Shown piece by piece: positions 8,477 through 10,074 of a DNA stretch of 64,000 nt. The notes under the pieces are model-generated. The model did no database searches. It saw only the letters and a list, made by a program, of their open reading frames with translations, and was not told where the DNA came from. A program made the position numbers and the translations under genes. The stretch is from IMG/VR virus record IMGVR_UViG_3300011226_000001, positions 128,001 through 192,000 of that record. One strand, written 5' to 3'. Within the stretch, counting starts at the first letter, position 1; the number at the start of each line of letters is the position of its first letter. This DNA comes from a virus (Duplodnaviria; Caudoviricetes).

Positions 8477-8821
8477 ATGGACGACGAGGACTTCGATTTT
8501 GAGTTCGGAGCAGACGATGACAGCGGTTACTACATCGACCAGCCCCTGCACATGGTGATGGACGGCGATGATGCAATCGTTGGACACCTCGTCGATTCCG
8601 GTGACAATGTATTAATGTACGGCGCCTACTTTGTTGTTGACGATGAAGAAGACCCAGACGCTGCTACGCTTATCGAGGTTCCAATCTTCAAAGTAGATCC
8701 TCTCGCCGATATCATCGTTGTAATGAACGCGGACGAAATGCGAATGCGCTATACCAGCGAGTTGCTCACTCTCGCCTTCATCAACGATATTCCTCTGGTA
8801 GTTAAAAGCACGAGGCATTAA
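8477..8821 (+). CDS. Acidic hypothetical protein
   Basis: 114 aa, GAGG SD, strongly Asp/Glu-rich. Confidence 0.7.
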   Translation: MDDEDFDFEFGADDDSGYYIDQPLHMVMDGDDAIVGHLVDSGDNVLMYGAYFVVDDEEDPDAATLIEVPIFKVDPLADIIVVMNADEMRMRYTSELLTLAFINDIPLVVKSTRH

Positions 8822-9408
8822 TGATCAAACATATTTTCTTCGACATGGACGACACGGCATTTGATACGCACAACTTCATGTTGTGTTATCTGATGAACTG
8901 GGGAATCTACCCTGGGACAGATACTTACATCACTCCTGAAAACGGCCACCAGCCTTTTGTCGATATGCTGGAAGATGGTCGCTTCATGTTAGAAGCCAAC
9001 ATGCGTGACTACTTCATCCAGACTGTGGCGTTCCTGGTGCGCGAAGGATTCAGCGTCGGCATTTGTACGCATCGTGGCTACCATGCTAAGGGTGAACGCA
9101 ACACACGTAAGGCTCTGGAGAAACACCTGTCGTTGTTCGATCACATCGACGTGCTGGACAGTCGCCAACATCCTGACAAGATTGCTTACCTCAATGAGAA
9201 GTACGGGGAAGGTACTTGGATTCTTGTTGACGACAATCCTGTTACTGCTGTGCGTGACAAGTTCACTCGCGTTGGTGATCAACTGGTACTGCCGCGTAAC
9301 GTGTTGCTGTTTACCAAAGGATGGAACCTGCACATCGATCATCCTCATCGAATTGAATCATTCGACAGACAACATTTCTTGTCAAAGCTGCGTCCAATGC
9401 TGAACTAA
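8821..9408 (+). CDS. HAD-superfamily 5'(3')-nucleotidase-like phosphatase
   Basis: Motif I FFDMDDT, motif II CTHR, motif III K, motif IV LVDDNP. Confidence 0.8.
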   Translation: MIKHIFFDMDDTAFDTHNFMLCYLMNWGIYPGTDTYITPENGHQPFVDMLEDGRFMLEANMRDYFIQTVAFLVREGFSVGICTHRGYHAKGERNTRKALEKHLSLFDHIDVLDSRQHPDKIAYLNEKYGEGTWILVDDNPVTAVRDKFTRVGDQLVLPRNVLLFTKGWNLHIDHPHRIESFDRQHFLSKLRPMLN

Positions 9409-9445
9409 GAATTGTCTGAATATTTCGGAATGTTTCTAATTTATA

Positions 9446-9538
9446 ACAGTACAAAACAGTGCATACGGAGTTTGCGCTGACTGTTTAGTTCGGCCTGTTT
9501 CTTTTGCCGAATTTGGGGATAGGCCGAACTCTTTTTTG
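9446..9538 (+). ncRNA. Putative small RNA (hairpin plus intrinsic terminator)
   Basis: CTAATTT motif at 9436; AAACAGT/ACTGTTT stem 9454-9486; AGTTCGGCCTGT/ATAGGCCGAACT stem 9487-9530 then CTTTTTT; no ORF. Confidence 0.45.
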
Positions 9539-9553
9539 TACAGACTCGGCCCT

Positions 9554-9755
9554 GAGTCACCCTAGGCCAACTAGCGTAACACCGCGTTATCGCTAATGGC
9601 CGAAAGCGGCTGCTCTAGGCTGCGAACTCCGCTACCTGCCGAAACGTTCGCTGCCGCAAAGAGCGTAAGACCGCAAGCGCTACCGTGTCGGTGCAATTGA
9701 AAGACACGGGGAGAAAGCCCTGGCTAGACCGTCATCTGGCGAGGGTGGACTCCAA
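9554..9755 (+). ncRNA. Putative ~200-nt multi-helix structured RNA of unknown class
   Basis: Closing stem GAGTCACCCT/AGGGTGGACTC; inner stems GGCCA/TGGCC, GCGGC/GCCGC, AGCG/CGCT, CCGTGTC/GACACGG, GCTAGA/TCTGGC; GC-rich, no ORF; strand inferred. Confidence 0.55.
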
Positions 9756-9876
9756 TATGTTTTCTCTGAGAGCCTATTGGAGTTTAAGACTTTTCTGACT
9801 TTATTCTTGTGTGACTACTCGCAGTAAACTGTAAACATAATTCAGAAGAACGAGAAATTTTAGCACAGGAGAATAG

Positions 9877-10074
9877 ATGCTTCGTAAACCAAGCTACCGT
9901 GTTGTCGCCGACTTGATTCAGGCTGACGGTACATTCACCACTCACACCGTAGAGAGTGGCATAAAAGATTATGACGTAGTGGAACAGAAACTTGAGTCAA
10001 TCAAGAACAACCCACCGTCCAACTTTAAGCACTTCTTCCGTGTCGTACCACGATGGGAAATGTGCTTTGCCTAA
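9877..10074 (+). CDS. Small hypothetical protein
   Basis: 65 aa, AGGAG SD, CTGTAAACA motif upstream. Confidence 0.75.
   Translation: MLRKPSYRVVADLIQADGTFTTHTVESGIKDYDVVEQKLESIKNNPPSNFKHFFRVVPRWEMCFA

Follow-up and report, generated by a model that had tools for sequence, protein, structure and literature searches.

The preQ1, SAM-II, and fluoride classes are pseudoknot riboswitches with terminator/antiterminator platforms, and the GOLLD (RF01998) and ROOL (RF03087) RNAs are orphans carried by phages and prophages whose multi-helix, covarying folds contain a pseudoknot and many invariant loop and junction nucleotides. An RNA with features of both was found in a 64,000-nucleotide (nt) stretch of phage DNA (positions 128,001 to 192,000 of IMG/VR virus record IMGVR_UViG_3300011226_000001; Duplodnaviria, Caudoviricetes), referred to here in its entirety as the window, where it occupies a gap between genes ahead of a clamp-loader gene. 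The region is very probably a real RNA gene, with a core at positions 9543 to 9785 and a unit that probably extends from ~9449 to ~9795. The RNA is about 250 to 350 nt in size and matched no catalogued family.

As in the pseudoknot riboswitches, an H-type pseudoknot is followed by a strand that appears to choose between two exclusive helices, the later of which is the more stable. The RNA differs from those classes in that it matches none of their families, has neither a canonical U tract nor a sequestered start, is followed by a promoter before the next gene, and carries a large extra 5' portion. GOLLD and ROOL share with it all the properties named above but showed no sequence or structure match to it and are larger (>500 nt versus ~250 to 350 nt). 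A literature search did not find a description of this RNA. A large screen of IMG/VR (PMC10690425) predicted 8495 candidate structured RNAs (DNAVirus_X motifs, 29 to 151 nt), and anonymous fragments of the RNA may be among them.

The plus strand of the region folded with a predicted energy of -104 kcal/mol (z = -4.45), and 0/200 dinucleotide shuffles were as good, which indicates RNA structure beyond chance; the minus strand reached a z score of only -2.06. At several pairs, G-U alternated with G-C or A-U (GU:9 GC:5, GU:8 AU:5, and CG:8 UG:6 in MAFFT alignment A4). Because such alternations would be C-A mismatches on the minus strand, they and the fold energies place the RNA on the plus strand. 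The stretch is GC rich and free of open reading frames (ORFs), as the initial annotation, made from the sequence without database searches, had observed (57 to 60% G+C versus 49% genome-wide; longest ORF, 41 amino acids [aa]). Its statement that the region fits no recognized tRNA, tmRNA, or ribozyme consensus was borne out. Among the 4227 models of Rfam 15, none matched at the gathering score across the 64-kb window, none matched at an E value of ≤10 within positions 9543 to 9800, and none matched at an E value of ≤0.5 in the corresponding stretch from six further lineages; ARAGORN found 0 tRNA or tmRNA genes across the window. No RNA is annotated at this locus in the public records of relatives. 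The proposal of a novel phage noncoding RNA is thus upheld, with strong and plus-strand-specific covariation across seven genera and no Rfam family.

Searches with blastn found the entire gap in 44 phage records at 72 to 98% identity, all from the genera Alexandravirus (of which Dickeya phage AD1 is one), Sasquatchvirus (Y3), and Snuvirus (SNUABM7). More distant relatives were reached by tracing the clamp-loader gene and reading the gap ahead of it, which yielded diverged versions in Yoloswag, pEa_SNUABM_5 (Rivsvirus; SNUABM5 below), Yersinia phage fHe-Yen9-02 (Yen9-02 below), and the Dickeya JA11/JA33 group (Salmondvirus). Two metagenomic contigs (110 kb, termed meta110k, and 71 kb) came from a pattern scan of IMG/VR. 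The resulting comparison set contained 20 homologues from seven jumbo-phage genera, and the location ahead of the clamp-loader gene was kept in 7/7 of these. A covariance model of the 3' core (R1; window positions 9661 to 9789) was built from 14 Alexandravirus-, Y3-, and SNUABM7-like sequences only. It matched Yoloswag, SNUABM5, JA33, fHe-Yen9-02, and the two metagenomic contigs over its full length (E values from 2e-13 to 1.4e-5); as those sequences had been left out of the model, their recovery is an independent test of homology. The window itself scored 150.9 bits against R1 (E value of 2e-39, full length), and the RNA gene was single copy in the genome by the same model. Every element by which the family is defined was found in the window, namely, GUAAGAC, the H-type pseudoknot, GGGGAG, hairpin P5, and the ACUCCAA/UUGGAGU hairpin, upstream of the clamp-loader gene.

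The family is narrow, with about 55 genomes. Phages PaBG and Lu11 have no gap at the locus, and searches of their whole genomes with R1 gave no match in PaBG and only a hairpin-sized match in Lu11 (E value of 0.157). No match to R1 was found among the 151 genomes searched, a sample of the bacterial order to which a Vibrio genome belongs. Searches by blastn with the Yen9-02 and JA33 versions recovered only those phages and their close kin, and a search of clamp-loader neighborhoods in IMG/VR recovered only genomes already known. The pattern GTAAG..GGGGAG..ACTCCAA, run against metagenome and genome contigs, gave no true homologue among the matches listed once the 3' strand was required, a result that is uninformative on distribution. 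The RNA is confined to one clade of Enterobacterales jumbo phages and to one syntenic position.

It is extremely improbable that there is no RNA here and that the stretch is instead a DNA-level element or encodes small unannotated proteins. Short "hypothetical protein" genes are annotated over the homologous RNA in Yoloswag (gp204; locus L026, 2303-2467), SNUABM5 (SNUABM5_00214; locus L027, 2237-2362, minus strand), and fHe-Yen9-02 (106c; locus L028, 2773-2979) and would fit such a reading, but their frames and strands differ among lineages, so they are probably misannotations, and the longest ORF in the window's own version is the 41-aa frame noted above. Compensatory changes, G-U alternations specific to the plus strand, and the confinement of insertions and deletions to loops also argue against it.

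The predicted elements of the core are as follows.

9543 to 9558, plus strand: hairpin P1 (GACUC/GAGUC, with GGCC in the loop), pairing in 13/13 sequences and invariant.
9565 to 9601, plus strand: P2 (GGCCA/UGGCC) around hairpin P2a (9573-80/9586-94), the loop of which, ACCGC, lies inside the invariant GUAACACCGCGU.
9606 to 9674, plus strand: long arm P3, with P3a (GCGG 9606-09/CCGC 9671-74) and P3b (9612-16/9660-64).
9618 to 9655, plus strand: upper parts of P3, namely, P3c (9618-20/9653-55) and P3d (9622-27/9646-51).
9677 to 9709, plus strand: H-type pseudoknot with stems S1 (GCGCU 9677-81/GGUGC 9690-94) and S2 (also P4; CCGUGUC 9683-89/GACACGG 9703-09).
9708 to 9713, plus strand: near-invariant GGGGAG, in which GGAG (9710-13, strand X) can pair with CUCC (9750-53) as helix P5a.
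9717 to 9746, plus strand: hairpin P5, with invariant apical GACCGUCAUC and loop CCGUCA (9729-34).
9747 to 9785, plus strand: P6, the hairpin at the 3' end (GGACUCCAAUA/UAUUGGAGUUU, with a further distal stem), whose 5' strand (Y) is shared with P5a.

Support for the 3' core was counted on the 20-sequence model alignment (A5), for which the structure, including the pseudoknot, was written by hand. Between 87.5 and 93.1% of cells were in standard pairs, and 24 to 25 of 40 pairs had changed on both sides. None of 500 column shuffles reached any of the summary measures, and sliding the partners by 1 to 3 columns reduced pairing to 28 to 50%. The plain MAFFT alignment (A4) concurred (94.3% of cells paired, 14 pairs with double changes, 0/500 shuffles).

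Within the pseudoknot, double changes were found at 6/7 pairs of S2 (92.8% of cells paired) and 3/5 pairs of S1 (84% paired). In S1 of Y3, a G-C pair is replaced by A-U and a C-G pair by U-A, and one S1 position has nine G-U versus eleven G-C. The same topology recurs with other letters in Yoloswag (S1 GGCGCG/CGCGCC, S2 CCCUC/GAGGG), and S2 reads CCCGC/GCGGG in JA33, CCCAC/GUGGG in meta110k, and CCACCUC/GAGGCGG in Yen9-02. Every lineage has GUAAG(AC) before S2 and GGGGAG (GGGGGA in Y3) directly after it. Both hairpins of the 3' module covaried as well. In P5, 8/11 pairs had changed on both sides (94.3% of cells paired), and its CCG(U/A)CA loop recurs in JA33 and meta110k and, on a different hairpin, in Yoloswag and SNUABM5. 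P6 comprises 17 pairs (95.2% paired, 7 with double changes) around a core pairing of ACUCCAAUA with UAUUGGAGU, in which ACUCCAA/UUGGAGU is invariant.

The 5' half was counted on MAFFT alignment A6 of the Alexandravirus-like group, in which 91% of cells were paired and 9 pairs had double changes, located at 3/5 pairs of P3b and 6/9 pairs of P3c and P3d. The outer stem of P2a, AGCG/CGCU, is CAGUG/CACUG in Y3 and CAGCG/CGCUG in SNUABM7. The apical loop of P3 carries an invariant GCUACCU (9631-37) that is also present in Yoloswag, SNUABM5, and Yen9-02, and the family-wide GUAAGAC (9665-71) lies in the 3' strand of P3. P1 is absent as such from Yoloswag-like lineages and, because it never varies where present, gives no covariation information. 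The Y3-like phage pEp_SNUABM_52 (locus L012, ~470-490, equivalent to window positions 9577 to 9586) carries a 10-nt tandem duplication of GUAACACCGC at the apical part of P2a, a natural insertion within an otherwise invariant block.

The predicted fold as a whole is a row of hairpins plus a pseudoknot and not a set of arms radiating from a single stem. The motifs that the initial annotation had picked out (CACCCT 9558-63, AGGGTG 9742-47, GCGG 9606-09, GACTC at 9543 and 9748, and GAGTC at 9554) were all found, as were ACTCCAATA/TATTGGAGT at 9749-57/9775-83 and look-alike stretches at 9573-95 and 9662-82. Several of the pairings that it had drawn between them were not. Its closing stem, CACCCU/AGGGUG, with helices radiating from it, is contradicted by the absence of ACCCU in phB78, SNUABM22, and Y3, and AGGGU pairs locally with GCCCU (9717-21) inside the covarying P5. 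Of the duplicated hairpin module, the first copy forms hairpin P2a and exposes ACCGC as described, but the second forms no hairpin. Its 5' half, AGAGC, pairs with GCUCU (9612-16) in P3b and its ACCGC pairs with GCGG in P3a; a local hairpin would need AGCG (9662-65), already engaged in the covarying P3b, and fails in SNUABM7/25. The idea of duplicated, exposed ACCGC modules behind the proposed protein decoy or kissing-loop multimer fails for the second module. Pairing of GCGG with the first ACCGC, as a loop pseudoknot, could not be told from P3a by column counts; SNUABM7/25 favor P3a (6 bp versus 3 bp), which there reads GCGAGG/CCUCGC, a two-base insertion matched by a change opposite. The alternative pairings of GAGUC and GACUC involve invariant bases, for which no covariation signal is possible. 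The pseudoknot and a probable upstream extension to ~9449 are additions to that first account.

A switch had also been suggested, and this idea gained support in a different form, with CUCC choosing between GGAG (9710-13) and GGAGU (9779-83). The invariant CUCC (9750-53, within ACUCC 9749-53) is complementary to both, and GGAG/CUCC (P5a) pairs in 20/20 sequences with almost no variation. In three distant relatives the choice extends over longer strands. The upstream, shared, and downstream strands are GGAG-UAUGCC, GGCAUA-CUCC, and GGAG-UAUGCC in Yen9-02; GGAG-UUUAUC, GGGUAAA-CUCC, and GGAG-UUUACCC in JA33; and GGAG-UUUUUCC, GGGGAAA-CUCC, and GGAG-UUUC in meta110k. P5a is thereby extended by 6 to 7 covarying pairs in these three, in which the entire P5 and the full P6 are mutually exclusive; in Y3, P5a and P5 are nearly continuous. 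Because three lineages covary for both helices, the RNA appears to have two states. Forced-state folding found the full P6 to be more stable than the P5a state by 5 to 9 kcal/mol in 9/9 lineages. A pair of exclusive helices, both kept by compensatory change, is the hallmark of an RNA switch; among the mechanistic conclusions drawn here, this one has the best support, with a stronger case for the family than for the window alone.

In state 1, GGAG would be stacked on the pseudoknot and paired with CUCC (P5a), leaving P6 shortened and UUGGAGU single stranded. In state 2, ACUCC would pair with GGAGU in the full P6 and GGGGAG would be free, with P5 also lost in the JA33 and Yen9-02 lineages. State 1 could form first, before the last strand is transcribed, and state 2 would be the thermodynamic ground state. 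The reading preferred here, to which roughly even probability is given, is that the element would act as a stand-alone switching RNA or ribonucleoprotein (RNP). As a stand-alone early transcript or RNP, it would present its invariant loops (ACCGC, GCUACCU, CCGUCA, and the GGAGU of upstream hairpin A) and the pseudoknot to a protein or small-ligand partner. Binding of the partner would fix the state and expose either a Shine-Dalgarno-like strand (GGGGAG or UUGGAGU) or an anti-Shine-Dalgarno-like strand (ACUCC). The complements of the invariant loops (GCUACCUG, ACACCGCG, GACCGUCAUC, and ACUCCAAUA) were about as frequent in the genome as expected by chance and were not concentrated at gene starts, so a simple seed-pairing model for a small RNA is unsupported.

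The same layout, with a sensor pseudoknot, a switching strand, and two exclusive helices, is that of a riboswitch expression platform, and the element could be a leader acting in cis, as a riboswitch or as an attenuator dependent on protein or RNA. The pseudoknot would then be the sensor, and transcription from the upstream host-type promoter would stop at P6 or, with P5a as antiterminator, read through into a 65-aa ORF and the replication genes. Two features of the DNA after P6 bear on this.

9786 to 9800, plus strand: U-rich tail AAGACUUUUCUGAC, a weak, noncanonical terminator tract at best.
9827 to 9837, plus strand: promoter-like motif WCTGTAAAYA for the 65-aa ORF, outside the RNA.

The conserved place ahead of the clamp loader in seven genera, the U-rich tail in Alexandravirus-like phages, and the lack of a terminator between P6 and the ORF in fHe-Yen9-02 would suit a leader, and two exclusive helices sharing a conserved strand were found, as expected of a riboswitch or attenuator. 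No output of either usual kind was found in the window, neither a terminator with a U tract nor a sequestered ribosome-binding site of the downstream gene. A terminator scan called none in the window, P6 is not followed by a U tract in Yoloswag, SNUABM5, Yen9-02, or JA33, and neither GGAG nor UUGGAGU has a start codon at ribosome-binding distance. In JA33, which lacks the 65-aa ORF, a separate strong terminator follows ~60 nt beyond P6. Right after P6, WCTGTAAAYA gives the downstream genes a promoter-like motif of their own; its position between P6 and the 65-aa ORF implies that the RNA is its own unit. A leader is on this evidence unlikely.

WCTGTAAAYA had 18 matches in the window with ≤1 mismatch (8.0 ± 3.1 expected), mostly before plus-strand genes (9828, 10173, 13041, 24880, 26163, 33527, 41463, 42736, 47386, and 53261), and probably serves as the promoter for a class of phage-directed transcription. 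In the JA33 terminator (locus L029, 3300-3375), a perfect Shine-Dalgarno-like UAAGGAGG is buried in the stem GGAAGAACCG/CGGUUCUUCC, which is followed by U9, with no start codon after it.

The preferred reading of a stand-alone RNA is consistent with JA33, which keeps the RNA with its own strong terminator and without the 65-aa ORF, so the RNA is independent of that neighbor, and with the single copy of the gene. The 130 nt ahead of the core are as conserved as the core itself, and several elements were recognized there.

9412 to 9446, plus strand: promoter-like stretch with TTGTCT (9412-17), 17 nt, and TCTAAT (9435-40), recognized from sequence and alignment.
9449 to 9541, plus strand: candidate 5' domain D1, with hairpins A and B and a tentative closing helix P0.
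9457 to 9479, plus strand: hairpin A (9457-63/9473-79), with a loop A-N-GGAGU that is invariant except for N.
9489 to 9528, plus strand: hairpin B, with a 14-bp stem (9489-9502/9515-28), then U6 (9532-37).
9449 to 9541, plus strand: closing helix P0, GUACAAAA (9449-56) with UUUUGUAC (9534-41), invariant in Alexandravirus-like phages.

Hairpins A and B together had 95.2% of cells paired and 9 pairs with double changes (0/500 shuffles as good), and each is found again, built from different stem sequences, in Yoloswag, SNUABM5, and Yen9-02. The P0 duplex has a predicted energy of -6.9 to -8.5 kcal/mol in Alexandravirus-like phages, better than 96 to 98.6% of shuffles, and is weak in Yoloswag and Yen9-02. 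In the minimum-free-energy folds of most lineages, hairpins A and B are closed into a three-way junction. CTAATT(T/A)A stands ahead of the RNA in 6/7 lineages, and fHe-Yen9-02 has GATAAT. The TTGTCT-17-TCTAAT stretch is a promoter by inference only; it failed the rule of a sigma-70 scan and did not recur elsewhere in the window. The sequence TTGTCTGAAT recurs just after terminators (9412 and 10163).

The arrangement also allows for two genes, a ~90-nt small RNA (hairpin A, ended by hairpin B as a terminator at 9538) and a ~250-nt RNA from ~9540, with the GGAGU loop of the first pairing with ACUCC of the second to set its state. Hairpin B followed by U6 is shaped like a strong intrinsic terminator, hairpins A and B both covary, and the invariant GGAGU in the loop of A is complementary to the invariant ACUCC; in addition, JA33 and its relatives keep the core without recognizable hairpins A and B. 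This is a possible but doubtful division of the locus, since no promoter is recognizable between hairpin B and 9543, and the complementary flanks of A and B in Alexandravirus-like phages (less clear in other lineages) suggest one closed domain.

The loop of hairpin A displays A-N-GGA with a variable N, which matches the CsrA-type consensus, and GGAG occurs three times and ACUCC once in the RNA, all invariant. GGAG is the commonest ribosome-binding motif of the phage (97/310 ORF leaders). A sponge or mimic for a reader of GGA/GGAG elements, whether RsmA/CsrA or the 30S subunit, could present such motifs. The 347 nt contain 5 GGA, versus 5.6 expected by shuffling, only one of them in a hairpin loop (that of A), and Rfam gave no match to the CsrB, RsmY, or RsmZ families. 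These results argue against a CsrB/RsmB-type sponge, in which GGA motifs are repeated many times and mostly sit in hairpin loops, and the wider sponge reading is held to be quite improbable.

Several observations weigh against a stand-alone two-state RNA. The covariation counts lean toward the structure, because the sequences are related and the alignment was fitted to the model. P5a in the window's lineage consists of 4 invariant pairs across a purine-rich internal loop; being invariant, these pairs carry no covariation evidence, and the case for them is by analogy with the three distant relatives. Support for P0 is modest, and a single 350-nt transcript is uncertain because hairpin B and its U6, located between the putative promoter and the core, resemble a strong terminator. 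A search of the 268-kb genome for partner proteins did not find TnpB, reverse transcriptase, Ro60, or RtcB, and the adjacent 65-aa protein had no informative fold match.

The window is part of a 268,224-bp jumbo-phage genome with direct terminal repeats, the closest published relative of which is Erwinia phage pEa_SNUABM_17 (Alexandravirus; 98% identity across the region by blastn). The setting of the RNA is given below.

8821 to 9408, plus strand: upstream gene for a HAD-type hydrolase of 195 aa whose N terminus bears the motif DMDDT.
9409 to 9876: gene-free gap of 468 nt that hosts the RNA, with plus-strand genes on both sides.
9877 to 10074, plus strand: conserved downstream 65-aa ORF.

The 195-aa HAD-type protein matched PHROG 16292, with a weaker match (E value of 1e-13) to a PHROG named "polynucleotide kinase," and had no match in Pfam and PDB sequence searches; by sequence, it may be a 3'-phosphatase or nucleotidase. 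The 65-aa ORF adjoins the RNA in six genera (unannotated in Yoloswag) and is absent from JA33 and PaBG. Its AlphaFold model, a confident one (predicted local distance difference test score, 89.9), has a beta-beta-alpha-(alpha)-beta order, with no family in Pfam, PHROG, or NCBIfam and no fold match in the PDB at an E value of ≤0.001; the best resemblances to small-protein folds were weak, to an entry from a type I-C CRISPR-Cas3 study and to the UDG inhibitor p56. The ORF is followed by a terminator and then by the clamp-loader gene (PF13177, E value of 6e-26).

The RNA thus sits inside the replication module, adjoining the clamp loader and with SbcCD further downstream, and it carries the invariant G run GGGGAG. 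A replication-origin transcript, serving as a primer or R-loop RNA like ColE1 RNA II or the T4 origin transcripts, could be placed in such a setting. The cumulative GC-skew minimum, which probably marks a switch in gene orientation or a replication landmark, is at genome position 124,296, 3.7 kb before the window start and 13 kb upstream of the RNA; at that distance from the locus, it gives an origin no support. There are no evident iterons, no evident antisense partner, and no evident AT-rich unwinding block beyond ordinary promoter DNA, and the invariant loops and pseudoknot across seven genera indicate a folded RNA product. An origin transcript is highly unlikely.

Comparison with further RNA systems removed several candidates. 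The omega-RNAs of TnpB/IscB are likewise multi-helix RNAs of ~200 nt with a pseudoknot, but neither a transposon end nor a neighboring nuclease gene occurs here, and PF07282 is absent from the 268-kb genome (the control search matched in 8/14 genomes). The reverse transcriptase domain PF00078 is absent from the genome, as are PF05731 (Ro60/TROVE) and PF01139 (RtcB). With their partner domains missing, omega-RNA, retron, diversity-generating retroelement, group II intron, and Y RNA-like readings are removed. A search of the genome for T4 Rnl1 gave no match, which shows nothing, because the same search matched no control genome either.

The T-box leader (RF00230) is a long multi-domain RNA with a pseudoknot before competing 3' helices, and AGGGUGGAC resembles the T-box core AGGGUGGNACC. 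It was rejected: RF00230 gave no match, and the UGG of AGGGUGGAC is unconserved (UGAA in Alexandra, CUAA in Y3, and fully paired in JA33). Here, UGG lies on the 3' strand of a helix and not in a 5' bulge, and no aminoacyl-tRNA-related gene is downstream. The phi29 pRNA (RF00044), the known counterpart of the multimer that the initial annotation proposed, is, like this RNA, structured, encoded by a phage, and at most a few hundred nucleotides long, but the RNA described here had no Rfam match, lies away from the genome end and the packaging genes, and has no family-wide self-complementary loop pair. Tailed phages generally package their DNA by means of terminase, and the same is expected of these myoviruses.

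A more far-reaching reading, held with rather low confidence, is that the RNA would be the first of a new class of sensing RNA or RNP specific to jumbo phages, in which binding of a ligand or protein by the pseudoknot would flip the 3' module. The flip would set the timing of the replication module, in its expression or activity, or would counter host defense, in either case without the usual terminator or ribosome-binding-site outputs. Jumbo phages contain many unexplained noncoding stretches, and in this one the fold is unusually well supported, with a pseudoknot and a bistable helix kept by compensatory changes over seven genera. If the RNA does sense a ligand or protein, phages now being developed to combat fire blight and soft rot would contain a new class of regulatory RNA; should it instead be an RNP component or a decoy, it would point to an unknown interaction between phage and host.

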